From assembly GCA_010093815.1 (NCBI GenBank), contig ML996568.1: 64,000 nucleotides of DNA; one strand, written 5' to 3'. The stretch's first letter is position 1. Every line of letters starts with the position of its first letter. This DNA is from Pseudovirgaria hyperparasitica. Its lineage: Eukaryota. The notes under the pieces are model-generated. The model saw only the letters and a program-made list of their open reading frames with translations, ran no database searches and was not told where the DNA came from. Both the position numbers and the translations under genes were made by a program. Positions 2,540 to 23,109 of the stretch are shown in pieces.

Positions 2540-3722
2540 AGGGGGTCGGCGTATCGGCGTTCTAGTAGCGTGGTCCGTGCCTCTATCTCCGTGAGGATTT
2601 TAAGAGGGTATATATATATCTTTATACGGCGATAACGTCTTAGTTTCGACGCTATACGTACGTGCGTGTGGTAGTAGTTAGTATACTTAGTATACTCTAT
2701 CGATTGAGGTGTGTATCTCGCTATATCACCCCGAATGAACCAAGTTAGCCTCTTAGAGATGTAAAAGAAGTTTTACTACTATTCTATAATAACGATTACT
2801 ACTACTAGAGTAATAATTGAATCTACTATATCGGGAAGTAGTTCCTAGATAGATAGCTATCTATCTAGTACTAGAGAAATAGGTATAAAAGAACTACTAA
2901 TATAGGAATTAAACCGTCTTCTATAAATAACCTATAATAGATTTAATAGATAGATTCTTTTAATAGAAGGTGTACGCGCTATAATCTAATAATAGACGTT
3001 AAATCTAGTTACTAAGGCCTATATTAGGTAGTATTATATATAATAATAATTATTATTATAAGTTAATAGTAATTACTACTATAATAACTAGATATATAAG
3101 AGTAGCTTTATTAATAGTTTTCTAGAACGCTAGTAGGAATAGACTAGATAATACTTACTTATAAGTAGTCTATAGCTAGAGTAGACTCTAGTAATAAACG
3201 GGCGGAGGGAGGGAATAATATTAAGGGTAGACTCTAGGTATACTTAACGCTAGCGTACTATACCCGTACTACTACTCTCTCCTTTACTTAATAAAGCTAA
3301 GTAAACTCCTTTTTAATAGTATACTCCGTTCTATATCTTAAGGAAGCTAAGTAGACTCTAGCTTCCTCCCTTATTAAACTTACTATATCTTATAAATACT
3401 CTTATATCTATGTATACGTTATATTTCTATAATAATAGTCTATCCCTATACTAGTACTACGTATATCTATATTAGATATATAGCTATCTAAATAGACGTG
3501 CTAGTGAAGATATTACCTATCGCGTTTAGATTACGTAAGATATTCTACTATACTATATTAGTAATAGTAGTAAGTACTACCTCTTCTAGTATAACTTTAG
3601 TAGCTATAATATTTAACTATATTCTCTTCTATTTATTTATCTTATTTATAATTTCCTTTAGAGATACTTATTAGATCTATATAAGGGTATCCTTATTCTA
3701 GATTATAATATATATACTATAT

Positions 3723-4251
3723 TATAATAAACCTTTTCTACTAAGGATACAGCTTATCCCTAAAGTAGTCCGTTATATAGAGTATTCTAACTTTTCTAAA
3801 GGTAAAGGTACTTAGAAGGCTTAGAGAAGTATAAGTAGATTTATAGTAAGTATTAATAGGGTATAAATGGTAACTAGCTAGTAGGCGAGTAAAGTAGTAA
3901 TTATATTAGTATAAGTTTAAATTAATTACTATAGAACCATCTCTAGAGATCGGGTCTAAAGAGTCTATATAGTTCTACTAAGGTCCGCTAATTAGAATAC
4001 TTATTCTAAGCGTTTAGTACGTTACTTAGAATACTAATATTCTATTTCTAATTATCTAGTAGGCTACTTAGAATATCTATTCTAAGTATCTATAATTAGC
4101 TCTCCCTATAGATATCTACCTTAGCCTTAGATTATTATCTAAGGCTACCTATTAAATTATAGGCCTCTCTTCTATATATTATACTATCTCTTATACTACT
4201 CGTGCTAGAGTCTATATATCTTTCTATAGCTCTAGCTAGTAATTTATTATA
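3723..4251 (-). repeat. 3' LTR of Gypsy A (529 bp)
   Basis: Co-linear with 10232-10760; differences are mostly C/T and G/A transitions; TG..CA ends RIPed to TA..TA. Confidence 0.95.
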
Positions 4252-4360
4252 TAATACCTCTCCTAAGGTACTTCGTCCCAAAGTACTTCTATAGCTACTT
4301 ATAAGTAGAGGGTTATCCTAACTTCCTTCGGTAAGGAGCCCTTCTTTCTTTTCTTTTATT

Positions 4361-5003
4361 ATATCTAGAGTTATAAAATTAGTTAAGCCTTCTAAGTCTA
4401 ATCCGGCGAAATAGAGAGTTACTTTATCTATCTTAATTAATTATAAGGGTAATAAGATACCTTTCTCTTACTTATTTTATAAGAAGTACGGCTTAATCTA
4501 TAGGGCGGTATTTATAAAGTCCAATAAGTATTTAGAGTATATTTATTAAGGTTATTTAGTAAGTAAGTACGGGATTAAGACTTTAAGTAAATTATCTTAT
4601 AAGTTTTCTTTCTTTTCGTTAGAGCTAGTAAGTAATATTTCTAGATAAGAAGGTTTATATTAAAAAGGCTTATCTTAAGCTAGAGAAAGAATATATAGCC
4701 GCTACTTAGTAAAAAGCTTAGTAGAACGCTTAGACCGCCTTTACGCGTCTAGAGCGTTTAGAGAAATAGTAGAAGCTATTAGAGTATTATTAAAATAATA
4801 TACTTTATTAGAATCTATTAGTAATAGACCTTAAGGAGAAGAAGAAGTAACTTAAATAATAACGGAGAGTTACTATTAAGGAGGTTCTAAATTCTCCCTT
4901 AGGTTTTAATAATTCTTAGCTTAGTATAGAGAACTAGATAAGTCTAGGTTTATTTAATAGAACTTCTATAATAGTTACTAGTAGTTCGTTAAATATTCTC
5001 TAG
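4361..5003 (+). pseudogene. RIPed antisense accessory ORF of Gypsy A (6-Cys cluster plus coiled coil)
   Basis: De-RIPed: M-SGVVKSVKPSKSNPAK..MPFS-C-SF-C-EKHGLI-C-RAVFVKSNK-C-SE-C-VHQGHSVSK-C-G. Probable intron ~4587-4644, then AYLELEKEYMAAAQQKAQQNAQTAFARLERLEKQQKLLE..; stop TAG at 5001-5003. Confidence 0.7.
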
Positions 5004-8000
5004 GTTTCTAAGTATTTAATTTATATCTATAGCCCTTCTACTTAATTAGATATTCTAATATTTTATTACTAATTCTAGATTCTAGAATCTTTTTAACTTC
5101 GAATTCTTTATCTATAGCTTTAATATTAGTTTTAACTTTTATATCGTGTAGTACTAGTTCTAGTAATAAGATATAAAATACTAGGTATATTCTAATATTC
5201 TAAGGTAAAGATAGTTTATAATTAACTTCTAAAATTTTTTATTTTATTTAGAAAGGTTCGATCTTCTTAAAGTCTAGTTTACTATTTAGTTATTATATCT
5301 TAATACTTTTCTATATAAGAAATACTAGGTCTCCCCCCCTTAGAGATAGTCCCTTTATTCTCTTTTAATTTATATATCTTATTATTCTTTCATTTATAAA
5401 GGAAAGTTTAGTTTATAGCTCTAAGTATAGTTTATATAGTTATTCTATCTTAATCTTCGCTTTCGGTATAGACTATTCTAGTTTATAATTATAGCTAGCT
5501 ATAGGGTTAAATCTATAGTTCGCATAGAATAGTAAGGTTCTAGTTATCGAGGTTATCGCGCTATTATAGGCGAATTAAGCTAGTAGTAGTAGTTCTATCT
5601 AATTATCTTATTATTCGTTAATATAGTATTATAGGTATTATTCTAGTATTCTATTTAGAATCTCTATTTATCCGTCTATCTATAGATAATAGACTATTAA
5701 TAGTTAGTAGCTCGTTCTAAGCTATCGTACTAGGCTTTTCTAAAAGTTTAATATAAAGAGCTTATCTCTATTAGATATAATACTATTAGATAATCTATAG
5801 TTCGCTATTACTACTTATAGGAATATATAGACTATTTCTTCTATATCTATATTCTTTTAATAGGGTATAAAGTAGGCGTACTTTATAAGTTTATTAACTA
5901 CTACTAGTATAGTATTATACTATACTTATAAGACTAGTTCTCTTAAGAGTAGTAGATCTATTATAAAATCTATAGAGATTATTTTCTAAGCACGTAATAG
6001 TAGGGGAATTAGTTAGAGTTCTCCGTATAGTTTATATCTATTAGATTAGCTTTTATTATATAGAATATAGTTCTATATAACTTCCTTAATAACTTATCTT
6101 TTCTTATAAGTTATATAGTATCTCTTAAATCTCTTATAAGTTTTTATTTCTCCTTAGTATCTATATATTAGATCTTTATAGAATTCTTTAATAAAATAGT
6201 AGGCCTCGTCTCTAGGGATTATACTTCTTCCCTTAGGGTCCTTAAATATAAATTCTTTTTATATTACTATAATATATTACGTTAGTCTAAGGTTTCTATC
6301 TTTAGTAACCTCTAATATAGCCTATTCTATAGTAGGTTCTTTTTACTCGTATTCCGCTTATTAACTAAGAGTATTAGCTCTTCCGTTTTTAGATCCTTTA
6401 TAGTATATAATTTAGATATTAAATTCTATAAGAAGCTCGTGCTAACTAATTTATTTCTTTTAGAGTTCCTTTATTATAGTAAAGGTAGTTAGGTTCTTAT
6501 AGTTAGTATATATCTTTATTATATAGCCTAATCTATAGAGGTAGCTTCTCTATTCCTTAAGGTATTTAATAATAGTATAGAGTTCTTTTTTATAGATTAG
6601 CTAGTTTATTTCTAATCCTTAGAATTTTCGGAAGTAAAATACTATAGAGTATCTTTTCTCTTATTTATCTATCTAGGTTAACTACTCTCTAATAGCGAAT
6701 TCTAATACGTCTATCTCGACTTCGTAGAGTTTTCCTATTTAGTATATCTTTAATATAGATTTAGTTATAATAGACTCTTTTAACTATTAAAATACTTATT
6801 CTTACTTTAGTCCCTATTTAAATATTATATTTTTCTTTATAAGCTTATATAGTAGGGCCGTTTTTATAGAATAGTTATATATAAATTTTCTATAAAAGTT
6901 CGTGAATCCGGTAAATCCTTAGATTTCCTTAACTATCTTAGGTTACTTCTAGTTTTTAATAGCCTTAATTTTCTTTAGATCTATTTATATTTCTCTAGGT
7001 ATAATCTTAAATTCTAAAAATATAACTTTCTATATATAGAAGATACTCTTCTTTAATTCTACTAGTAGATTCGCTATTTATAATTTCTAAAGTACCTTAT
7101 ATATATATTTCCTATACTCTAATAGATTCTTTAAATAAATTAATATATTATCTAGGTAGACTATTATAAAGTAGTTAAGGTATTCTCTTAGTATATTATT
7201 AATTAGTACTTAAAATATAGCTAGTATATTAGTTAGTCTAAATAGTATTACTAGGTATTTATAGTAGCTATATCGAGTCTAAAAGGCTGTTTTCTATTTA
7301 TCTTCTTCTATTATATATACGAGGTTATAGGCTTCTTATAAGTCTATTATAGTAAAGTACTAAGCTTCTATAAGTTAGTTCTATAATTTATTAATTTAGG
7401 GTAAAGAGTATCTATTTTCAATAGTAATATTATTTAAGTATTAATAGTCTATATAGAGTTATTCGCTTCCGTCTTTCTTTAGTATAAAAAGTATTAGATA
7501 TTCTATAGGTAATTTAGAGGGTTAGATATATCCCTTTACTTCTATTTTCTTAATATATTATTACGTTATTTCTAGTTATTTTTTAGTAAGTTGATATATA
7601 CTTTTAAACGTAGATACTATTCCTAGTTAGAGTATTATTATATAACTATATAGGCTATACTTTAGTAGTCCCGTCTTAAGTTCTTCTTTAAAGATAATAT
7701 AATATTAGTAGTATTTCTTTAGTATAAGTATATTATTTATTTTTCGAATCTATTTATCCGTGGGCGTGCCTTATTATACTACGTGTTTCTTATATAAGGG
7801 TCCGCTCTCTATGTTACCTTACTTATTATTAAGCTTCTAAATATAGTAGATAGACTTCCCGGTCGTTAGCGCCTTTATAGATTTATTAATCTCTACTTCT
7901 TCTTTAATAGTTTCTAAGGGTCTTAATATTCCCTAGAGTATAATTTCTTTAGTTTTCTAGTTAATTATAGGGTTAACTTCTTTAAGCTATAGTATTTCTA

Positions 8001-10231
8001 GAATTAAGTCGTATTATTCTAGCTCCGCTATATCTAGTTATAATTATTAGTATTCTACTATTAAGACTAAATCTAGAGGTTCTATTTCTAAGTGTACTAT
8101 CCCGTTAGTATATTCTATATTAAGTCCTTTAAACGTAGATAATTTATATAGCTCTTCTTTACTACTATAGGGTATTTTTAGTTTATCTACTATAGTTAGA
8201 GAGATAAAGTTAGACTATACTCCGCTATTAATTAGTACTTTAATAGAGTATTTTTAATAGAGCTAAATTTTAAGAGATATTTATATTTTATTATCTAAGC
8301 TACTAATAGATATAAGAGAGTTTCTTTTTAGCTCGGCCGTTTCTCTTAGTATATCTAGTCTTTCTAGTTTTTTCGTAGCTTACTAAGTTCCCGTTCTATT
8401 TCCTATATAAGTTATATTATAGATTAAACTTATTTCTTAATTTCACTTAAGTCTACTTAAAGGTTATACTATATAATAGCCTTAGATATTAGGTAAGTTC
8501 GGTACGTAACATCTAGATATTAGGTATATTAGTTCTCTAGGTAATTCTTATTTTCTATCTATTTTAATATAAAGTAATTTTTATTAGCTTCCTTAGTAAT
8601 TATCTTATACTATTATATATCTTTATCTCTAAAGGCTTTTAGAATTATTTAATTCTAATACTATTATAGAAACTATTTCTAGATTCGCTTCTTATAAAGA
8701 TAGCGAAGATAGTTATTATAGAGATAGATAATCTAAGAGGTCTTATTATATTTCTCGTGGTAGAGTAAGATAAGTTAGTTATCTTCCGGTTAAATCTCTA
8801 TCTCTCTTAAAGATAGATCTCTATTATTCTTACTTATATATTTTCTACAATAGTAGATAATATAGTAAGTAGTAGGGTCTTAGTCTATTATTAACTTATT
8901 ATATAGTTCTTCTATAGTAAGGGTTTCTTCCTTACTATCTTTCTTAGTAGTACTTCCTTTAATTATTACTTCTTCGGGTATCGTTTCTTTAGTTAGTTTA
9001 GATCTTCTTATCGTATCTAAGTATTTCTATAGTTCTATTTTTTCGTGAAATAATAGGGGTTATTTACTAGCTATTAAAATATTTCTTTTCTTTAGATACT
9101 AATCTATACTATCTTTTTCTAACTTATATATAAAGTAGAGGTTGTTAGTATAACTAGTCTATAATATAGCTACGTAAGATACTTCTTCCTTTTCTATAGT
9201 AAAGTTTTCTTATCTTAATACTAGATTCTTAATCTAGTTTTTCTTATTTTTATTTTTTAGGCATTCGCGGGCGTAGTATCCCTTTTCTTTATAGTAGAGA
9301 TACTTACCTTCCTTCTTTAGTTACTCTCTTTCTTTACTAGATAGACGTTTTATCTATAAGATACTAAGTTCTATTAGTATAGGTCTATTATAGAATCCCT
9401 TATATAGATAGTTTAGGGCTTTATTAATATAACCCTTCCGAGTATCTTATTTAAGTATAGATTAAAAGATCTTTTTCCCTCTTTTCTTATAGTATCTCTT
9501 ATATAGTTAGTTATTAATCTAGACTATAAGCTTAATATACTCTTAGAGATTAGTAGGACGGTGTCTCTCTCTAGAGATTTCGTCCTTAATATTATTATAT
9601 AATCTAGTATAGAACTAGAGGATTAGGGGTTTATTATTCTATTCTAGCTAACTAGAGATTTATTAGAATTTAGAGGCGTAGTTAGACGCGGATTTTATCT
9701 AGACTATTTACTAGATTTATCTCTTAGCTATCCTTTATTTATCTATATCTCTAAAGGTTATTTTAATATATTTCTTAAATTCTTTAAAATGTTTAAAGAT
9801 CTTAGTAGTATTATTCTATTAATTCTACGGATTATTTTCTATAAAGTCCCTTAAGTAGGGTTTAAACTAAGTAAGTACGTCTCTCTTTAGTAGTCCGGTA
9901 GTAAATATAACTTATTCTTCTAGATTCTAAATTTAATAGGTCTAGAGATATATTCTAATCTATATTAGAAATCCTTAGAGTTCGCTTCGCTTACCTTTAA
10001 AAGGTTCTAGGATTTTTCTTTTAAAGCCCTCTTTAGCTTTTCTAAGTTTAATATTTTTTCTTTAGAGCTCCGTAACTTATTTCTCTAATTCTATAATAAG
10101 ATATTTAACTTATTCTATAGTTAGTACTTATAGAGTGGTTTATAAAGATAAGGACTATCTATTATTTACTATTTTACGTTTAAAGAGATAGTATAAATAC
10201 TTACTTTAGAGTCTAAGTAGAGTAATTAAAC

Positions 10232-10760
10232 TATAATAAACCTTTTCTACTAAGGATATAGCTTATCCCTAAAGTAGTCTATTATATAGAGTATTCTAGC
10301 TTTTCTAAAGGTAAAGGTACCTAGAAGGCTTAGAGGAGTATAAGTAGATTTATAGTAAGTATTAATAGAGTATAAATAGTAACTAGCTAGTAGGCGAGTA
10401 AAGTAGTAATTATATTAGTATAAGTTTAAATTAATTACTATAGAACTATCTTTAGAGATTAGGTCTAAAGGGTCTATATAGTTCTACTAAGGTCCGCTAA
10501 TTAGAATACTTATTCTAAGTATTTAGTACGTTACTTAGAATACTAATATTCTATTCCTAATTATCTAGTAGACTACTTAGAATATCTATTCTAAGTACCT
10601 ATAATTAGCTCTCCCTATAGGTGCCTACCTTAGCCTTAGATTATTATCTAAGGCTACCTATTATATTATAGGCCCCACTTCTACGTGTTATACTATCTCT
10701 TACACTACTCGTACTAGAGTCTATATATCTTTCTATGGCTCTAGCTAGTAATTCATTATA
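10232..10760 (-). repeat. 5' LTR of Gypsy A (529 bp)
   Basis: Pairs with 3723-4251. Confidence 0.95.
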
Positions 10761-10980
10761 TATATACCCTATTTATAATTCTAGCGGTTCTTAGGGTAGT
10801 AGCTCTAGATATAGCTATAATCTATATCTATGTATTAGGATACTTACCTTAGAATAGCTCTTTCTAAATCTATTATAAGCTAGTCTCTATTCTATTAAGT
10901 CTATTATCTAGTTCTCTTCATAGTAACTTCTATAGTAATCTTCTCTCTTTCTCTATAAGTTCTCTTAGATTCTAGATAAG

Positions 10981-11218
10981 TGTAAAGAGTAAAGACGTGG
11001 GATAGTAGTCTAATAGTTCATAGAGAGATATAGGAATGTATTTATAGAGTAATCTCACTCTTATACGAGGTTGATTCCTAATGAGTAGGAATCGGTTTAT
11101 ACGGTCTACTTATATAGTGACCTCGCTTAACTTAGCTGACTTAACCTAGCTCTAGCTACTACGTGGCTATATGGATTAGAATAGTCTATATAGGTCCGTT
11201 ATGGTTCCCGTCCTAATA
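10981..11218 (-). repeat. 3' LTR of Gypsy B (238 bp)
   Basis: TGTAAAGAG...GTCCTAATA, matches 19700-19937. Confidence 0.95.
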
Positions 11219-11697
11219 ATATCCTTCTTCTTTTTATGCTTCGCCCCGAAGTACTTAAGTATATATAATCCTAAGTCTCTATAATCTATCGTGTATCTAT
11301 ATATCCGTAACTAAGTTCCTATAACGTTATAACCATCCTTAATATAGGTGAACTCAAGATTCTAGTTCACTTTTACTAGTTCATACACGCGCTTATCCCT
11401 TACTTCATAGCTACTACCTAGAACACATAATCACTACTTTAGTCGAGTATATATTTAGCTTCGCTCGCCTTTGATTTTATTCTCTAGTATATCCACCTCG
11501 CTCTTAAGGTAAGTCGTTAATTTATATACTATCTTCCCTAGTTTAGGTCTAGAAGGGTCTATAGTAGTCTATTCTTATTAGAACCGGTCCAATATAACCT
11601 ATTCGCGTTATTATAGTTACTAATTTAGCTTCGTTAATCGCCGTTAAGGGTAGACAAATATTCCTTCCTTAGATCTCTAGCTAATATATATATATAG

Positions 11698-13010
11698 ATA
11701 TCTAATACTAGTCCTATCTCTAAGCCTACCTTCTCCTCTCGTAAGACTCGCTCTAAAGATATCGCCTCCTCCCCGGCTACGCCAGCTAAGAAGTCTACCT
11801 ATCGCGGTAGTACGAAGGCGCGCTCTAAGTCGGAGAAGAGAGTAGCTAGGGCTACTACTACTACTGCCTCTGCTACTAATATAGCTACTAGTCGCTCTAA
11901 TCTAGGTAATCCTAGTACTAAACTTATAGATAAAGTGGTTATAGGTTCTCCTCTCGCTCTAAAGCGCACGCCGTCTACTCTACCTCCTCTAGAGGATGAA
12001 GAAGATCTCGTTATAGATAATAATCGCGAGCTCTCGCGCTTACCTACGCCGCCGCCTTACCGCTCTTCCTTCCGGTCTAATATAGACCGATTTAGTTACT
12101 CTAGGTTCTTTTAGGACCTTAATATTCGCTCTAAACCCTAGCCTACTAATAATAAGGCCTAGGTCGCCGAGGATACTAAACGTGGTCGTGGTTTACGCCA
12201 TAGAAAAACGGCGAACTACGGTTCGATATACTATAAGTATATTAAGGGCTATACGGCCGGCTCTAAATATCTCTTTCACTCTAACTCTAGTATTAGCTAC
12301 TACTCTACTAACCGCGACGGGCCTATACGCCCTATCTTTACTCTATCTACCCGCTACCGCCGCTATACCGTAACTAGTAAGATTTATCTATAGGTAAGTA
12401 TAATAGGCTATCTTAATCTAGTATAATCTAAAGTGGTCCGCGCTAATATATTCTTAGGTTCCTATACATATATAAGATATATATAATAACCTTCGCGTCC
12501 GTGAGACCCTCGGGGGTCCTTATAGCCGTCTATCTACTATATAGAGGGAGTTTAGGGAGCGCTATAAGCTCTTCCTAGAGGTTATTAAAGTGTAAGTTAT
12601 AAGCACGTTAATTGTTTTTAACACCCGTTGATTTTTCTAGCCGCCGCAAGATCCCTAGCGCCTAGGCTACCTATTCTAGGGAGTCTATCCTAGCTATAGA
12701 GGCCGTAGAGAGGATTCACTCTATCCCCCCCCATCCGTCTCACGCTACTAACAGATCTCATAAGAGGTCTACTATTTCTCCCTCTAAGTCGCCTCATAAG
12801 AGGGTATATATTCCCTTCTAGATTATTCTAGATTATATTAGCTAACTTTAGATCTAGTCGCTACGCTCCGGCGCTTAAGGCTCTTCTCTCTAGGCTCTAA
12901 CGGATTGGGTTATTACTCTAGAGGCTAAGGTCGTCGTCCTCCGCCGCTATATCGTATAGTTAGAGAGAACTATACTAGAGATTAGGACGGATAATAAGAT
13001 AGAGGAGTAG
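11698..13010 (+). pseudogene. RIPed multi-exon antisense accessory gene of Gypsy B
   Basis: Long frame MSDASPVSKPTFSSRKTRSK...C-CK-C..C..SAR-C-RR-C-TVAGKI-C-LQ, then GTAAGT intron 12394-12457 (GCTAAT branch, TAG acceptor) rejoining as VP. Second intron 12592-12640, probable third ~12803-12857; acidic C-terminus ending TAG at 13008-13010. Confidence 0.72.
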
Positions 13011-13295
13011 CTCTATGGTTCTGGCTCTATATGTTATCTCTATGCCTGGCTCTATATATTCTAGATCTACTATAGGTAGTGCGCGCCGGCTCTATTTACC
13101 TAGCTTTTATCCATTTTAGTCCTTTTTAGACCGTTTAGATACCTATCGGCTAGTTTCTAGTAATTTAATTCTTAACTTAACGATATTATGTATGCGCTCG
13201 CTTAGCTTATAACTATTAGTTTCTATATTCTAATTTTCCTTAAGTTACCTAAGTGTAGGCACCATATATAAATTAGTTTATCTCTATAAATTCTA

Positions 13296-13345
13296 TTAGA
13301 GTACCCGAACTAGTGGCCTAGTAGTTATTAGTTCGGGTACTCTAA
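13296..13345. repeat. Hairpin with perfect 17-bp arms between the convergent pol and antisense gene of Gypsy B
   Basis: TTAGAGTACCCGAACTA-(16 nt)-TAGTTCGGGTACTCTAA. Confidence 0.9.
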
Positions 13346-16300
13346 CCTTTTATATTTCGTGTTAAGAGTTTAATTCTATAGTAGGGTACCTTTTTTTAGG
13401 TTCTTAGTCCTATGTTTTTCTCGTGTATAATGGTCTATATTAGTCTATTCTAGACTCTTCTATGTTATTCTATTATGGTATATCGCGTTACGTTCCTAAA
13501 ATGGTTATTTATACTTTCTTCGCGTCTAGTAACCGTACGACGCTTAAATTATAGGGCTGCTATATAGAGTTTTCCTAGTGCGCGTCTAGATTTCCTAGTT
13601 TAGTACTTCGTTCTCTACGGTATTCTTCTTCTTTTTATAACGACCGCGACGTCGCTATACTTATATTAATAATACGCTATTCTATATCTTTTACTTATAC
13701 GCAGCTATTATAGAACTTAAGATATATACCGCTAGTTCCTAGGTATCCTCGTCCTTAGTATAGTCCTTCTAACGGATTCTATATTTCTAAATACTATCTT
13801 TATCGATTCTATATTTAATAATATAGTCTACTTCGAACACGTCTAGTCTATCTTAGGGTATAATAGAGTATAACTACACGTTTATGCGGCCATACACGTT
13901 AGGTCGAAATCTTTCGAGTAGTAAGACGTGGAACACGTTATAGATTCTTATATCGCTTCCTAAGTCGAGCTCGTAGGCTCTTATACCGATACGACGTTTG
14001 ATTCGGAAGGGACTAGCCATTTTATAATCGAGCTTCTTATTTACTCGCGACGTTCGTATATTATAGACGTTAAGAAGGACCTTATCGCCCTCCTCGTACG
14101 TCTAATCCTTAGCTAATCTATTATAGTACTTCGTATACGAGTCGTTTACTTATTAGATTATAGCGCGATAGTTACGTGCGGTTTCGAAGATTTTAATTGC
14201 TAATTCCTAAGCGTGGACGTTCACGTCTATTATTCGATTAAATTAGACCGTCTAAGGCTTAAAACCTATCCTTAGACTGCGTCCGAGGTTCGCCTAGAAA
14301 GGTATAATATCTATTATACTATAACGACTATTATTATATACGAACTCTACTATACTTAGTAGGGAGGCCTAGTCGTCCTACTCGAAATTATAGAATACGC
14401 GTAGGTAGGCCTCGAGCGTCTAGTTCTATCGCTCTATCTAGCTATCCGTCTAAGGATAAAATACTATAGATATGTTTCTATTTATACTTACTATTTCGTA
14501 GAATAACGTCTAGAATTTAGACGTGAAGGTACTTCCTCGGTCCGTAACGATCCTTTTTAGTATACCATAGACCTTAATAATCTCGTTCTAGAATACCTGC
14601 GCTAGTTCTTTAGATGTAATCGTCTTCTATACTAGGATATACCTAGATATCTTTATAAGTCTATCCACGATAATAAGAATAGAATTATAACTTATTCTAA
14701 GTATCTCGCTTAGAGGTAAGTTAACTATAAAGTCTATAGTAATGTCTTCCTATATAAAGAGGGGGGCTGAAAGAGGCTATAAATTCCTATATGGCTTATG
14801 CCTAGGGGCCTTCGTTCTTTAATAAATCGGATAAGTAGCTATCTATTCTTCAACATACTTAGGTATATCTTCCTAAAAATAATACTAACGAATTAAGCTT
14901 AGGGTACGTATATATCTAAAGTATCCTACTAGGTTAGCGTTATAGTATCGGCTAACTACGTTAAATCGCGCGTTACCCGTCGGTATATAGTACTTTCTAT
15001 TATAGTAAAGTAAGCCGTCCACGAAGGTCTACTTATAGTCTACTTTAGTCCGTAATAACCTATCTTACTATATTTTATGTAACTTTAAAACTATCGGGTC
15101 TATCTTCTATAGATCTATAATTAACTAGGTAAGGTTAATTAGATATTTACGCTAGGTATTATCGCCCTTCCCGATAGCGCTAATAAACGGCCTACTAGGG
15201 ACTTCGGTACCGCGTCTTTAGTTACCGGCTTCGGTCTTAGAGATTCGATTACCGGTATCGACGTTAGCATCTCGCTAATCGCCTAATAACTTAAAATCTA
15301 ACCTCGTCCTTAAGAGTTGGGCCTATAGCTACTCTAGGACCCTATGGCTACTATGATCCTAGGCGCCTTCTTTATAGTTAGGTCTTCTTAATATTCTATT
15401 AGCTATATTTATACTTCTAGGTTAATAGTAGATTATAAAGTGAAAGTTCGTAAGCTACTTAGCCTATTAGACCTATTAACGGTTTAAAACTATCGTACTT
15501 ATAAACCCCTTTAAGTTATAGTAATTAGTTAGTAACTCGACGTTATATATAGTACCTTTAAGATAATATCGCTACTATTTAAACGACTCTACTATTACTA
15601 GTAGCTCTTAGTTATAGATAGTATATCTAGTCTTAATATCGACTATTTTACGTAAGAAGAACGTAACTAGATACTATTAGACCTTTTTAGACTTAGTTAG
15701 TCTAGGCTAGGAGAGAATATCTAAGATTATAAATTCTAACGCGTCGGTTTTAATATAGATAGGTTTAGTTAGATTAAAGTATACTAGTAATAGGGTAGTT
15801 ATAAATGCCTCTTTGATTTTCTCGAAGGAGGCCCTTTCGCCTTCTAATAATTCTATAGACTATAATTTAATATTATACTATTTCTATCTACCACGGACCG
15901 TAATAGATGAATCTATAGTAGTAGTACGCGCGTTAAGCGGTGCTACTAGCCGGGAGAAATGCTTAACGAATTTTCGGTAGTAATTAGCGAATCTAATAAA
16001 GATACGTATATCTTAAACCGATTTTAGTTTAGGCTAGTCCACGATAGTAGTAACCCTATCCCTTTCTATAGTTATACCTTAATTAGTAATAACGAAGCTA
16101 AGGAAGTTAACGTGGTCCTAGTGGAACTCGCATTTAGATAGCTTAATATATAGCTTATATTTTTCTAGCCTATCTAGAACTACGCGTACGTGCTAGATAT
16201 ATTCTTCTTCGTTATTAGAGAAGATAAGGATGTTATTAAGATATACGATGCACGTCGTGTCGAGTAGGCCTACTAGCGCGTTATTAATATACGCTTAGAA

Positions 16301-16854
16301 GGTTCCTAGCGCGTTAGTTAGTCTAAAAGGGACCACTATGTACTCGAAGTATCTATAACGGGTCCTAAACGCCGTTTTCCACTTATCGCCCTTCTTAATA
16401 TATAGGCGGTAGTAGGCGTCGCGTAGATTAAGCTTAGTAAAGATCTTCGCGCGCTCTAGTCTATTAATAGACTTGGAGATAAGAGGTAGTAGGTAACGAT
16501 TCTTTCGTATAATATTATTTAGGCTATAGTAGTCGATATATAGACGGAGACTCCTATCCTTCTTCTTTATAAAGAGGATTAGAGCTCCGGCTAGGGATAT
16601 ACTAGGCCTAATCTATTCTCGCGTAAGGTTCTTTTCGATATATTCTCGGAGGACCTATAGCTCGGGTTCTAATAGAGGGTAGATAGGTCCATATAGGGGT
16701 TATTAACCGTCTTCGAGGTTAATAGTAAGGTCGGTAGATTAGTATTAAGGTAATTCGGACGAGTCGATCGCTAACGCGATATATTAGTATATTTTATACT
16801 AATATAGTAGGTTTTCGTCTACTTTAATACTAAGCTCTCTATTTTAAGTAAGTA

Positions 16855-18672
16855 AGAGGATATAGATAGCGGAGATTACCTTTTTATAGTCCTTCTAGAA
16901 TTATTCGTCGTCGACTAGCTATACTAGGTTCTATTATAGTAGGTATATATGCTAGCCAGCTGTTTTCTAGATGAAGTCTAGTTTCGGGTTATATTTTTCG
17001 AGCTATAGTATACCGAGGATTATATTAAAGGGACTATCTACCACGATAAAGGTTAAGTAGTAGGGTTTCTACTTCCCCCCGCTATCCTAGATACTATATT
17101 TAATAGTATAGGTACCCTACGATTTAATAGGACCGTCGATACTATAGAAGGTAGTATCTATTAGTACTTAAATATTGACGTTAAGTTCTCGTGCTCGTTA
17201 AGTCGATATAACGTTAGTAGCTAAACCGCTATCGAGTATTACGGTCTAATATTATCTATAAGGGACCTTAATAGGCCTAGCCTATAGTTCGATATACTAG
17301 TTAGCTGGTTATCCCTCTATTTTAGTTACGCCTACGAGTCGCGAGGGTTCCTTATAGGTAGTTAGTTTTTTATATCGTGTACTAGATAGTTAGGCGCGAT
17401 GTATTCTAGCTACTAGTACTTATAGTATATAACTAACTTAGTATCTATATTAGTATTCGGTAGTTTCCCTAAGCGGCACTCGGGTGCTATATAGCCTATC
17501 CTACTATAGGTGTAGTAGGTGACTTTAGGTCGTTTATACGAGTCGTTTCTCGCGTCTTAATATATCGACTAGTAGAAAGATCCGTGGTACGGGCCTCGTC
17601 TTCTTAAGTTCGTAGAGTAGTAGCGCCCATAAGGTATTCCGCGCGATCTATTACTAAACCGGTCCTCTTTAGATGATTTTATATTAGATTAGATTAATAG
17701 GGATAGTTATACGCCTATACGACGTTGGTTATTTATTATACGCTAATATTATTCTACGNNNNNNNNNNAGAGGATATAGATAGCGGAGATTACCTTTTTA
17801 TAGTCCTTCTAGAATTATTCGTCGTCGACTAGCTATACTAGGTTCTATTATAGTAGGTATATATGCTAGCCAGCTGTTTTCTAGATGAAGTCTAGTTTCG
17901 GGTTATATTTTTCGAGCTATAGTATACCGAGGATTATATTAAAGGGACTATCTACCACGATAAAGGTTAAGTAGTAGGGTTTCTACTTCCCCCCGCTATC
18001 CTAGATACTATATTTAATAGTATAGGTACCCTACGATTTAATAGGACCGTCGATACTATAGAAGGTAGTATCTATTAGTACTTAAATATTGACGTTAAGT
18101 TCTCGTGCTCGTTAAGTCGATATAACGTTAGTAGCTAAACCGCTATCGAGTATTACGGTCTAATATTATCTATAAGGGACCTTAATAGGCCTAGCCTATA
18201 GTTCGATATACTAGTTAGCTGGTTATCCCTCTATTTTAGTTACGCCTACGAGTCGCGAGGGTTCCTTATAGGTAGTTAGTTTTTTATATCGTGTACTAGA
18301 TAGTTAGGCGCGATGTATTCTAGCTACTAGTACTTATAGTATATAACTAACTTAGTATCTATATTAGTATTCGGTAGTTTCCCTAAGCGGCACTCGGGTG
18401 CTATATAGCCTATCCTACTATAGGTGTAGTAGGTGACTTTAGGTCGTTTATACGAGTCGTTTCTCGCGTCTTAATATATCGACTAGTAGAAAGATCCGTG
18501 GTACGGGCCTCGTCTTCTTAAGTTCGTAGAGTAGTAGCGCCCATAAGGTATTCCGCGCGATCTATTACTAAACCGGTCCTCTTTAGATGATTTTATATTA
18601 GATTAGATTAATAGGGATAGTTATACGCCTATACGACGTTGGTTATTTATTATACGCTAATATTATTCTACG
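16855..18672. other. Assembly gap (10 N, 17759-17768) flanked by a 904-bp direct duplication
   Basis: 16855-17758 reappears at 17769-18672 and is identical wherever spot-checked, including RIP-mutated positions. Confidence 0.9.
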
Positions 18673-19699
18673 AGATTCGTAAGTACCTAAAGGTCGGTAG
18701 AGATAGACGTTATAAGGTTAATATATTCCTTTACGCTCGGGTTAAGAGACCTTTTAAAGTCGTCGTATTATCGAACTATATAATCTTTCTTAGCTTCTCT
18801 CTAAAGAGGTTAGAGGTATTTAAGAAGTTATAACGGGGATTATCTCTCTCGCTATTAAGTCTTAAAGATATGGCTCTAAGTCTATTCGCGTCGCTTGGCT
18901 CTATCGCCGAAGTATTAAAGAAGGAATTCGGTGAACGTGTTCTAGTTATACGTATCCTTAGGGTGTTTAATTTAATATACCATCTAACGTTTAGATGGCG
19001 TTAGGTCTAGGTAGTTCTATGCGAATCTAATCTTATTACTATTATTCGTGAATAGGTGGAAGAATCGGCTATACTAGTAAGCCTATTTATAAAAGCTCCT
19101 CCTGGTTTTACTATCGAAGTAAGGTGGTTTTTTAGGCTAAGGTAACTAGGATAGTAATAGACTTAGTTAGACTATTTCGGCTTAAGTTAGTCTATATTAG
19201 TATAGATTAGTTACTACTAGTACTAAAGCGCGTAGTACGGCTTTAAGTCTAGCGGTTCGTCCTTATACTTTATTAAGTTCGTAAAGTTACTACTTAAGCT
19301 AAGCCTAACGCTACCTCTCCGTGTATAGCTTAGTGTATATATTATCGTGAGGCGTGGTTAACGTTAGTCGGTTCTAACGAATTAATTCGTTAACGTTAAT
19401 AGGGTCTGGTCTTATAGTAAGGATGGGTCTAGTATGGTATAAACTAGACCGCGATGGAGTATAATAGACTCCTTCCTTATTATCTAGGTAATCTTCTACG
19501 GTTATACGGAATGCCGTACTAGTTATTAGTATAATAGCCTATAGGGTATACTTATTAGTGGAGGTGGTCGTAGGGAGACTATTCTCTTCGTTTAGATTTA
19601 GAGAGAGTCTCTCGTATAAGGTAGTACCACGGGTATTATAGCGCGTAGTAGGAGCTATCTCTATAAGCTACCGTCGTACTATATAGAGAGGAATTAAAA

Positions 19700-19937
19700 T
19701 ATAAAGAGTAAAGACGTAGGATAGTAGTCTAATAGTTTATAGAGAGACATAGGAATATATTTATAGAGTTATCTTACTCTTATATAAGGTTGATTCCTAA
19801 TAAGTAGGAATCGGTTTATGCGGTCCACTTATATAGTAACCTCGCTTAACTTAGCTAACTTAACCCAGCTCTGGCCACTACGTGGCTGCATGGATTAGAA
19901 TGATCCATATAGGTCTATTGTGGTTCCCGTCCTAATA
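19700..19937 (-). repeat. 5' LTR of Gypsy B (238 bp)
   Basis: Pairs with 10981-11218. Confidence 0.95.
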
Positions 19938-21518
19938 ACGCTATAAATTCTATATAGCGCGCCTTATAGCTATGAACTCCTCTATAGAAATCTATAGAGC
20001 GGTAGAACCTAGAATAGAGAGAGACGGACTAGCGCGGGTACGCTAAGAATTATATAAATTAGTAAAAAGATTTAACGATCGGTATAGAACCATATACCTT
20101 TAGTATAGAAACTTCTAGATTAGAGCTATCTTCCCTAAATTTACGGCTCTTTAGTATACGCGAGAAAGGAACCTTAGCCTTTTTACTAGAACCTTTTCTA
20201 GGAATTTTAATATCGCCGGTATATAGAAAGAAGTCCGAAGTAGTAGAGATTTTAGTACTATTATAGAGATTAATATATATTAGTAAGAATCTATAACGAT
20301 TTAAGAAAAACGATATTACCTAGTAACCGCGGTAATAATAGCTATAGTAGATTCCGATAAATCCTTACGGATCTTATTAGAATTATACTCCTAGGCGTAA
20401 CTCTTACCTTAGATATATAGCTTATAGAAAGCCTTCTCTAAGGCGTTATAATCGGTAGTACTACGCTCCTTATTAGTAGGGGTTACTAGAGGCCTAGTAG
20501 TAATCTATACTAATATAAGTAAATCTACGTAAAGTTCTTCGAACTTACTTAAATACCTATAAGTAATAACGCTTCTTAGTTATATAAGTACCGTATATTA
20601 TAGATTTAGTACTACCGTAAGTAATGTATAATAGAAAGCGATAACTATAATAATATATAGCTAGATTATTAGAGCCCGGCCTAGGTCGGGGTAGATCGAT
20701 AGCTTTTAACATGTTAGTAACGTATATAAGATAGGGATTATTCGAAGACGCCTATTTCCATACTAATTACTTTAGAGTATTAAGATTTCGGGAAACTATA
20801 TTATAATTATTATTAATTTATGCGGATTATTACGAATTATATTATTACTAGCTAAGGACGGTATAAAAATTAGTAAATTGCGTAAATCGTACTAAATTAT
20901 AGTAAATCTATATAAATCTATATCTATAAGGATCGGGTAATATACCTAATAATCTAAAAAACTCTATAAAGAGTTAAGAAGTTTTTTAAAGAAAGGAATA
21001 TTTCTAAGAAAAGATTTTAATATAGATAGTACCCGGGCTTACCTAATTATATTACGTGATACGCTAGGCCTAATTAGGTAATCTTACCTATATAAGAAGT
21101 TAAGATAGATAAAATCTAGTTTATTAGGAAAACGCTTATATAAATCTTAGATTAGTAAATATCGGTAAGTATCTAAGACGAAGCGTAGAGAACGACTAAG
21201 GTCTTACGAGACTTAGGATAGGGATATAGAGATAGATAATAATCTAGGTCGCTAAGGGTAGCTTCCTAGAGGGAAGGGATAATTATTAGGACTTAGCCTT
21301 AGGTAGGACCTAACCTATATATACCTTAGCTAATAGGGTTAGGAGGTGACGTGAAGGGCGGTAAATAGTTATATACTAGATAGATCGGCATCCCTTTATA
21401 TATATACTCTCGGATTCCTATTAAAAGGGTTCGGTAGTAATTCGTTCTATAATAGAATACACCCTATTATTCTATCTAACTATACTACTATCTAATAACC
21501 CTATTCTTACAATATCTA

Positions 21519-22112
21519 TATAAGAAGATAGACTCTATATACTAACTAACTATACTAAAAGGACTAAATCTTAAAGCTACTACTTTAAGGGTAGAGTATA
21601 CTACTTATATATAACTACTATATATATAAATTAACTAGTAGACTACGTACTTCTTACATACCTAATATTATCTCCCCTTTTTAAAGGCGTGTATCCTTAT
21701 ATATTATAGGTATACTACCTTATAAAAGATAAACTAAACTAGCCGTAACGGGCCTAGTATAAACCATGTATATACCTAATTAAAATACTTATAATACCGC
21801 CTCTAGTACTAGACATACTAACTTACCGTAGTAACGTTACTACTATATTATCTATTATATATAGAATATGTAATATAGTAAACTAAATAGAATCGTATGA
21901 AATTTAATAACGGTTAACTAGACTAAGAGTTAAACTAGTAACTCTATAGTAGCTTTAAGATTCTATAAGAAGGTAGACTCTATATACTAACTAACTATAC
22001 TAAAAGGACTAAATCTTAAAGCTACTACTTTAAGGGTAGAGTATACTACTTATATACAACTACTATATATATAAATTAACTAGTAGGCTACGTACTTCTT
22101 ACATACCTAACA
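21519..22112 (-). mobile_element. TRIM (terminal-repeat retrotransposon in miniature), 594 bp
   Basis: 149-bp LTRs at 21519-21667 and 21964-22112 (the second ends ...CCTAACA); 296-bp non-coding interior; 5-bp TSD ATCTA (21514-21518 / 22113-22117); minus-strand PPT AAAAAAGGGGAGATAA beside the left LTR. Confidence 0.9.
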
Positions 22113-22845
22113 ATCTATTTCTATACTAATTACTTTAGAGCGTTAAGGTTTTAGAAAACTATATTATAATTATTATAGATCTATATAGATTATAATAAAT
22201 TATTATTATTACTAGCTATATATATTATAAAAATTAGTAAACTATATAAATTATAGTAAATTATAGTAAATCTATATAAATCTATATCTATAAGAATTAG
22301 ATAATATATCTAATAATCTAAAAAACTCTATAATAAGTTATAAAGTTTTTTAAAGAAAGGAATATTTCTAAGAAAAGATTTTAATATAGATACTATCTAG
22401 ATTTATCTAATTATCTTACGTAATACGCTAGGCCTAATTAGATAATTCTACCTATATAAGAATTTAGAATAGATAAAATCTAGTTTATTAAAAAAATACT
22501 TATATACTTCTTAGATTAGCTAGTATCTATATATATCTAAGCTAAAGTATAATAAATAACTAAGATCTTATAGAACTTAGAATAGAGATTATAGAGATAG
22601 ATAATAATCTAGATTACTAAGAGTAGCTTTCTAAAGAAAGGGAATAATTATTAGAACTTAGCCTTAGATATAACTTAATCTATATATATCTTAGCTAACT
22701 TAGTTAGATAGTAGTATAATAGATAGTAAATAGTTATATACTAAATAGATCGGCGTCCCTTTATATATATACTCTTAGATTTCTACTAAAAGAGTTTAGT
22801 AGTAATTTATTCTATAATAGAATATACTCTATTATTCTATCTAGC

Positions 22846-23073
22846 TATTAGAACTTAGTCTTAGGTATAACCCGATCTACACGTACCTTAGCTAATAGGG
22901 TTAGAAGGTAGCGGGAAGGGCGGTAAATAGTTACGTGCTAGATAGATCGGCGTCCCTTTATATATATACTCTTAGATTTCTACTAAAAGGGTTCGGTAGT
23001 AATTTATTCTAGGATAGAATATACTATATTATTCTATCTAACTATACTACTATCCAATAACCCTATTCTTACA
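22846..23073 (+). mobile_element. Solo LTR of family C (228 bp) inserted in another family-C LTR
   Basis: TATTAG...CTTACA flanked by TSD CTAGC (22841-22845 / 23074-23078); the host LTR resumes at 23079. Confidence 0.88.
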
Positions 23074-23109
23074 CTAGCTATACTACTATCTAATTACCCT
23101 ATTCTTATA

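Follow-up and report, generated by a model that had tools for sequence, protein, structure and literature searches.

In Botrytis cinerea, the Gypsy element Boty carries an antisense gene named brtn (Zhao et al. 2011, PMID 21802103, as cited in the accessible parts of PMC8365987, PMC7264820 and PMC4227169). Excerpts of PMC7264820 list Boty with the elements whose pol-3' LTR interval contains an antisense ORF. Extra ORFs of Botrytis elements are drawn in Fig. S1 of PMC8365987, as far as excerpts of that paper indicate. The PMC7264820 excerpts also describe antisense 3' ORFs of plants, namely gene23 of maize Grande, rice RIRE2, Silene Retand and PvRetro13, whose function is unknown. In the case of Grande, they report an own upstream promoter and a nuclear product.

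The locus studied here belongs to a family of retrotransposons, family B, that compares with these systems as follows. Like Boty, family B consists of fungal Ty3/Gypsy elements that have a chromodomain and carry an additional gene in antisense. The likeness to brtn is drawn from description and position, and the excerpts on brtn mention neither a Cys cluster nor a coiled coil. Unlike Boty with its brtn gene, family B is dead by RIP. With the plant ORFs, family B shares the antisense orientation, the pol-3' LTR interval and the family-wide occurrence. Those ORFs belong to plant lineages, however; they are likened by position only, and the excerpts of PMC7264820 mention neither a six-Cys cluster nor introns for them. 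Word and profile searches of protein databases returned no protein named BRTN. A literature search, with most subscription journals and Zhao et al. 2011 outside its scope, gave no description of an antisense six-Cys protein encoded by Gypsy elements of fungi. The family-B gene is best read as a brtn-like antisense gene whose six-Cys cluster has long spacers and lies outside the Gal4 family as defined.

The window, i.e. the whole 64,000-nucleotide stretch that was analysed, is the start of a contig in a 35-Mb fungal genome. Its first 24.5 kb show a strong RIP signature (TA/AT 1.4-1.9). Element B, the carrier of the antisense gene, is a RIP-inactivated Ty3/Gypsy chromovirus of subfamily B1 located on the minus strand at 10981-19940 (TA/AT 1.6-1.9). 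It is bounded by a 5' LTR at 19700-19940 and by a 241-nt 3' LTR at 10981-11221 with a purine tract just inside. The two LTR copies (241 nt) differ by 26 transitions and 1 transversion. The pol region, from RT to chromodomain, was located by Pfam matches at 13693-16570 (approximate ends) and contains many stops. RT (RVT_1), RNase H, integrase, SH3_Tf2-1 and the chromodomain (Chromo) all match the minus strand, and element B is therefore a chromoviral Ty3/Gypsy element. Its two LTRs, the pol order RT-RNase H-integrase and the C-terminal position of the chromodomain are those of this group. Chromo and integrase scores are under the Pfam cut-off in the RIP-damaged window copy; pol relatives have PF00385. 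About 2.5 kb separates the end of the chromodomain, near 13693, from the 3' LTR. The antisense gene is located there, on the plus strand and opposite to gag-pol, as a preliminary description of this DNA had placed it.

Around element B, no matching 5 nt were seen between 10976-10980 and 19941-19945, as would be expected of a target-site duplication; the element may be a recombinant, or its flanks may have been altered by RIP. A 904-nt perfect direct duplication (16855-17758 and 17769-18672) lies on either side of a 10-N gap at 17759-17768 and is almost certainly an assembly overlap. The same pattern of duplication around a gap occurs twice at another locus, L138.

The gene model was built on 40 aligned family-B copies, to which 10 more were added after a search with pol. 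This search led us to fetch 18 loci, the other 8 of which belong to other families. Counts per site are given over these copies. The antisense gene is composed of four exons, with 1146 nt corresponding to 381 codons plus the stop. Exon 1 (11698-12393) has 232 codons in one frame and encodes a basic Ser/Lys/Thr/Ala-rich N-terminus, a Pro/acidic patch and the six-Cys cluster. This agrees with the preliminary description, which had read about 230 in-frame codons from 11698 with a basic Ser/Lys/Ala-rich beginning. The start codon at 11698 is ATA in the window copy and ATG in 17 of 49 copies. Exon 2 (12458-12591, 134 nt) opens with VP. Exon 3 (12641-12803, 163 nt) ends with a bipartite NLS-like motif, RKR-x9-RKR. 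Exon 4 (12858-13010) encodes a heptad-like helix and an acidic end; its stop, at 13008-13010, is TAG in 50/50 copies. In the list of open reading frames of at least 40 aa, the region is represented by a wrong-frame piece of 63 aa at 12182-12373, already pointed out in that description, and also by an in-frame piece of 59 aa.

Intron 1 (12394-12457, 64 nt, phase 0) opens two codons past the last Cys site. Its donor is GTRAGT in 42/50 copies and its acceptor YAG in 50/50, so that the clean intron rejoining as VP reported beforehand is found family-wide. The two further introns that had been proposed, along with the acidic terminus, were located at 12592-12640 and 12804-12857. Both are partly deduced from the frame, from AT-richness and from a 1-nt difference between subfamilies because their splice signals are incomplete. 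Intron 2, in phase 2, has 49 nt in B1 and 50 in B2, which accounts for this difference. It has a GC content of 0.23, a GT donor in 10/50 copies and YAG in 50/50; no canonical branch site was found in it among the 50 copies. Intron 3 (54 nt, phase 0, GC 0.29) has the donor GTATAT, non-canonical at +5, in 49/50 copies, and GCTAAC and YAG in 50/50. Overall, GC is 0.23-0.31 in the introns versus 0.41-0.50 in the exons. A candidate intron at 12705-12755 was rejected, the AG at 12753 being GG in 19/40 copies.

Upstream of the coding region, a 5' UTR intron occupies 11509-11697. The donor GTAAGT at 11509, the branch site GCTAAY at 11680 and the acceptor TAG at 11695-97 are each found in 49/49 copies, and the acceptor directly abuts the start codon. 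A second possible acceptor is located at 11626-28. The preliminary description had an intron-like stretch from about 11650 up to the start codon. Its branch site and acceptor are indeed conserved. Subfamily B2, however, lacks the GT at 11650, and the intron most likely opens at 11509. A TATA-like sequence, TATATTTAG, lies at 11447-11456 on the plus strand, about 60 nt upstream of this donor, and is followed by a pyrimidine-rich leader. It is present in all 5 displayed copies, from both subfamilies, and is a candidate internal promoter.

Several observations show that this frame is that of a selected gene. In the exons of the window copy, 9 of the 83 stop triplets of the plus strand fall in the model frame (p = 2e-6); this count leaves out the stop at the last codon of exon 1, with which the copy has 10 internal stops. 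Over 49 copies, which are not independent, the figure is 438 of 4127. In exon 1, at 11698-12393, the window copy has 4 in-frame stops. The mean over 40 copies in this interval is 3.6 in the model frame, versus 11.4 and 38.9 in the other plus-strand frames and 9.4-47.6 in the minus-strand frames. No frame with comparable stop depletion was found in the flanking non-coding stretches. The coding exons have almost no indels among 40 copies, unlike region 13020-13090. That region, just 3' of the stop codon, consists of length-variable short repeats with insertions of 14-78 nt and deletions of 12-29 nt in the 40 copies.

Similarity between subfamilies B1 and B2 is about 80%. The indels that distinguish them are -6 and -3 within exons, while 7/9 outside exons are not multiples of three. 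We calculated pN/pS from transversions, which RIP does not produce. The ratio between B1 and B2 is 0.44-0.47 in the model frame (Fisher p 0.001-0.0025) and 1.5-1.6 in the shifted plus-strand frames. One minus-strand frame also gives 0.43, yet it is rich in stops. The gene region is held by 50/50 aligned copies, one of which has an internal deletion, as is characteristic of a brtn-like gene carried family-wide. Thus the four-exon frame has been under purifying selection, family-wide, and is RIP-disabled in every copy examined.

With these results there is very little doubt that the antisense gene itself is real. They bear out the idea of an accessory gene of about 380 aa: the frame has 381 codons, is depleted of stops and has been under purifying selection, its indels are multiples of three, its splice signals are conserved and every aligned copy has it. 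Neither of the two outcomes named beforehand as fatal to it, unconserved splice sites or absence from other family members, was observed. Selection on the protein suggests that the gene was once expressed. Two sequencing runs from another sample under the same species label contained next to nothing of it, which is no proof of absence.

As for its inactivation, the stops are nearly all TAG or TAA, the types that RIP creates. Each of the 49 copies counted has 4 to 12 internal stops, and none of them is therefore intact. RNA editing need not be invoked to explain the fixed stops: 3/14 internal stop columns are fixed, versus 1/6 in a pol-end control. A search with the Cys region gave 123 matches in the genome, 122 of which have no internal stop. 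We fetched 20 of these matches, mostly the most divergent. In all 20, the alignment to element DNA extends past the Cys region; an un-RIPed host paralogue was not found among them. The fetched matches at 48-61% could have formed a third subfamily but are B1/B2 copies mutated more heavily. Four loci (L139, L156, L157 and L158) are B1/B2 mosaics with switch points within the antisense gene, which suggests recombination between the two subfamilies.

The encoded protein would begin with a basic low-complexity arm of 177 residues ahead of the Cys region. The preliminary description had seen in the window a Cys cluster ending RC-RR-C-x6-C. All the Cys sites concerned are Tyr codons in the window copy, so this motif had been deduced by its reader. 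The cysteines themselves are found in other copies, at codons 178 (5/49), 181 (11/49), 201 and 202 (2/49 each), 220 (5/49), 223 (1/50) and 230 (8/50). The six are never together in any one copy. The pattern pieced together from the copies is C-x2-C-x19/20-C-x17/18-C-x2-C-x6-C. After the cluster come the NLS-like motif and the helix of exon 4, a probable coiled coil as judged by eye. From the NLS-like motif, the protein is possibly nuclear.

Across copies, the general six-cysteine layout of Zn(II)2Cys6 proteins, C-x2-C...C...C-x2-C-x6-8-C, is present. Zn2Cys6 domains are defined as CysX2CysX6CysX5-16CysX2CysX6-8Cys (excerpt of PMC2447501). As in Gal4-type domains (PF00172), there are two CxxC pairs, each with a further Cys, the second being exactly C-x2-C-x6-C, as well as basic flanks, an NLS-like motif and a downstream helix. 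In contrast, the family-B spacers of 19-20 and 17-18 residues stand against X6 and X5-16, and no Pfam match was obtained, so that membership in the Gal4-type Zn2Cys6 family as defined was rejected. The cluster also sits mid-protein, behind the low-complexity arm, and is encoded by a retrotransposon.

None of the exons matched a Pfam family, and Zn_clus was matched by 0/5 family-B pieces at E up to 5. None of the 603 candidates from a word search with exon 1 reached E 0.1, and searching 1.84 billion representatives with a profile built from 15 copies gave 0 matches at E 0.001. A mixed profile retrieved 17 proteins; the 13 that were read are relatives of the metagenomic genes L042 or L047 (see below) and none is a relative of the family-B gene. 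The best ESM Atlas rows, at a sub-threshold 0.86, are unnamed ascomycete clusters and a lead only. Membership in DUF3716 (PF12511) was rejected: family-B pieces have no match, none of the 6 matches in the genome falls at the listed family-B Cys sites, and one ESM Atlas row at 0.80, containing 28% DUF3716, does not exceed chance. Elsewhere in the genome, three loci (L120, L121 and L122) have DUF3716 matches above the Pfam cut-off. The structure model of the family-B Cys region shows three beta strands at low confidence (pLDDT 50), and a fold search with it gave no significant PDB match.

Pol homologs were used to fetch 79 metagenomic loci, from the best 80 of 593 matches. At least 1200 nt are available behind pol in 46/79 loci; an uninterrupted six-Cys pattern is found there in antisense in 8 and in sense in 2, counts that leave out intron-split clusters and include some misplaced pol ends. 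In a quick pol tree, without bootstrap and with composition skewed by RIP in the rows from this genome, family B falls together with P0001 and with family C, which belongs to the same genome (SH-aLRT 99). This group is sister to a clade of seven loci (98).

In 4/7 elements of the sister clade, an antisense six-Cys gene has an intron at the same place as in family B. In three of them (L042, L047 and L119), the antisense six-Cys exon is intact and closes with a GT donor placed, exactly as in family B, two codons past the last Cys. Among 190 half-sites of the form CxxC-x5-8-C in the 79 loci, 3 are followed by a GTR donor two codons on, and all three are in the sister clade. The fourth element, L083, has the same junction and also rejoins as VP; two of its Cys sites are Tyr. 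In L041 and L045, the 3' region is apparently missing, and no six-Cys gene was found in 1249 nt of L043. Comparison of the family-B profile with the Cys domains of L042, L047 and L119 was not significant (probability 0.1%), and homology to the sister-clade genes therefore rests on position, Cys pattern and intron site. An exon-wise HMM and tblastn search against the metagenomic loci gave no significant match either. In family C (L140, G000:C23), an antisense RIP-damaged gene with a shorter cluster of Cys type was noticed between the end of pol at 6552 and the LTR at 8464. It has an intron two codons past the last Cys and a C-terminal heptad helix.

Outside the sister clade, six loci (L054, L055, L088, L056, L096 and L106) have antisense clusters with canonical Gal4-type spacing, 2-6-8-2-6 or 2-6-11-2-6. 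In seven others (L073, L078, L080, L081, L092, L095 and L097) the cluster seems to be split by an intron. Weak Zn_clus matches were obtained for 5/10 metagenomic pieces, none over the cut-off, and the sister clade contributed none of them. In the model of L042, each CxxC is followed by a helix. Compared with 48,161 chains, this model gave Gal4 as single match (Z 2.1, rmsd 4.7, 40 residues aligned), short of significance and a lead only. The Cys-domain models have pLDDT values of 50 and 57, and the Gal4 match concerns the relative L042 only.

Element B carried, antisense to gag-pol, a third gene that codes for a protein and lies in the interval from the chromodomain to the 3' LTR. We propose that this gene had a TATA-like internal promoter of its own, close to the inner edge of the 3' LTR, from which its transcription would converge on the gag-pol RNA. 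The antisense pre-mRNA would be spliced by the host. The packaged genomic RNA of such an element is the opposite strand, so that introns of an antisense gene are copied back intact at each transposition. These introns would outlast retrotransposition because, on that strand, they are not splice substrates. The product would be a nuclear protein in which six Cys with long spacers form a zinc cluster and the C-terminal helix serves for dimerisation. Most likely, it would act in trans by binding the DNA or chromatin of the element that encodes it. Its effect would be to drive or protect transcription of the element, as an activator or an anti-silencing factor. We see an even chance that the gene encodes such a nuclear zinc protein, acting on DNA or chromatin of its own element and regulating it. 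Vandal anti-silencing proteins are named VANC. Like them, the family-B product is an extra element-encoded protein that could shield its own family from silencing. The analogy is functional only: VANC proteins belong to plant DNA transposons and are compared here by function, not by sequence or structure. The extra ORFs of Vandal are cited as anti-silencing factors in an excerpt of PMC11728184.

The protein might instead act after transcription, as a nuclear accessory factor for RNA export, packaging or integration targeting that would bind element RNA, Gag or integrase via its Cys domain and coiled coil. The long spacers, unlike those of Gal4-type DNA binders, and the beta-rich, low-confidence model of the Cys region would suit such a role. 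There are precedents in the CERV protein of Cer1, required for nuclear export of genomic RNA (excerpt of PMC10309623), and in the accessory-factor roles suggested for antisense ORFs (PMC7264820, in part). Distant relatives in the same position nevertheless fit the canonical Zn2Cys6 spacing, and we regard a post-transcriptional role as unlikely, though a serious contender. A distinctly smaller probability goes to a cargo gene that would alter host physiology or development and not the element's own cycle. The model for this is REP9-1 of Zymoseptoria tritici, a transposon-borne gene with a Cys domain (DUF3716) that alters pycnidia formation, according to an excerpt of PMC8232023. Yet REP9-1 is carried by a DNA transposon and the family-B protein has no DUF3716 match; the fixed position and retention across pol lineages better fit a cis-linked role in the life cycle.

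The functional product could also be the antisense RNA, convergent transcription yielding dsRNA and small RNAs that restrain the element, with the protein secondary. This has been considered for antisense ORFs in PMC7264820, as its excerpts indicate. We find it improbable, given the selection on amino-acid sequence and frame, although both roles could coexist. The last alternative is a host fragment captured once and passively retained, or a frame that arose by chance from RIP bias. In its favour, no database homolog was found, and several Cys and donor sites are present in few copies. Against it stand the multiple genome matches, with no un-RIPed host paralogue as far as examined, the purifying selection inside the element, the lack of stop depletion in flanking non-coding DNA and the identical intron junction in sister elements. 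This possibility is largely refuted and very improbable.

The usual picture of a fungal Gypsy element contains gag-pol and nothing else. The presence of a third gene, selected and spliced, whose product has a zinc-cluster-like domain suggests that these elements may have their own regulator. For the brtn class, which has no assigned function, this would offer a mechanism open to testing. In annotations of fungal genomes, genes of this sort are mistaken for host transcription factors or are lost to repeat masking and RIP. Because the window copy is dead and the class has a precedent from 2011, the value of the locus lies in the family-level pattern. A wider version of the proposal, doubtful in our view but worth stating, is that many fungal chromoviruses encode their own antisense zinc-cluster regulator. 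It would have been taken once from the host Zn2Cys6 repertoire, with its introns kept by the antisense position. It would then have diversified in each lineage (here with a beta insertion and long spacers), so as to recognise the element that carries it and oppose silencing by the host. If true, these genes would be a fungal retrotransposon counterpart of family-specific anti-silencing proteins.

Other repeats occupy the same end of the contig. Element A, a neighbouring chromovirus at 3689-10768, is more heavily damaged by RIP; it has about 700 nt from chromodomain to 3' LTR, with no Cys motif visible. A MITE-like stretch of 425 nt, at 2123-2547, lies between 40-nt inverted repeats. On the other side of element B, region 20752-23082 contains RIP-damaged direct repeats about 1.36 kb apart, with smaller repeats inside.
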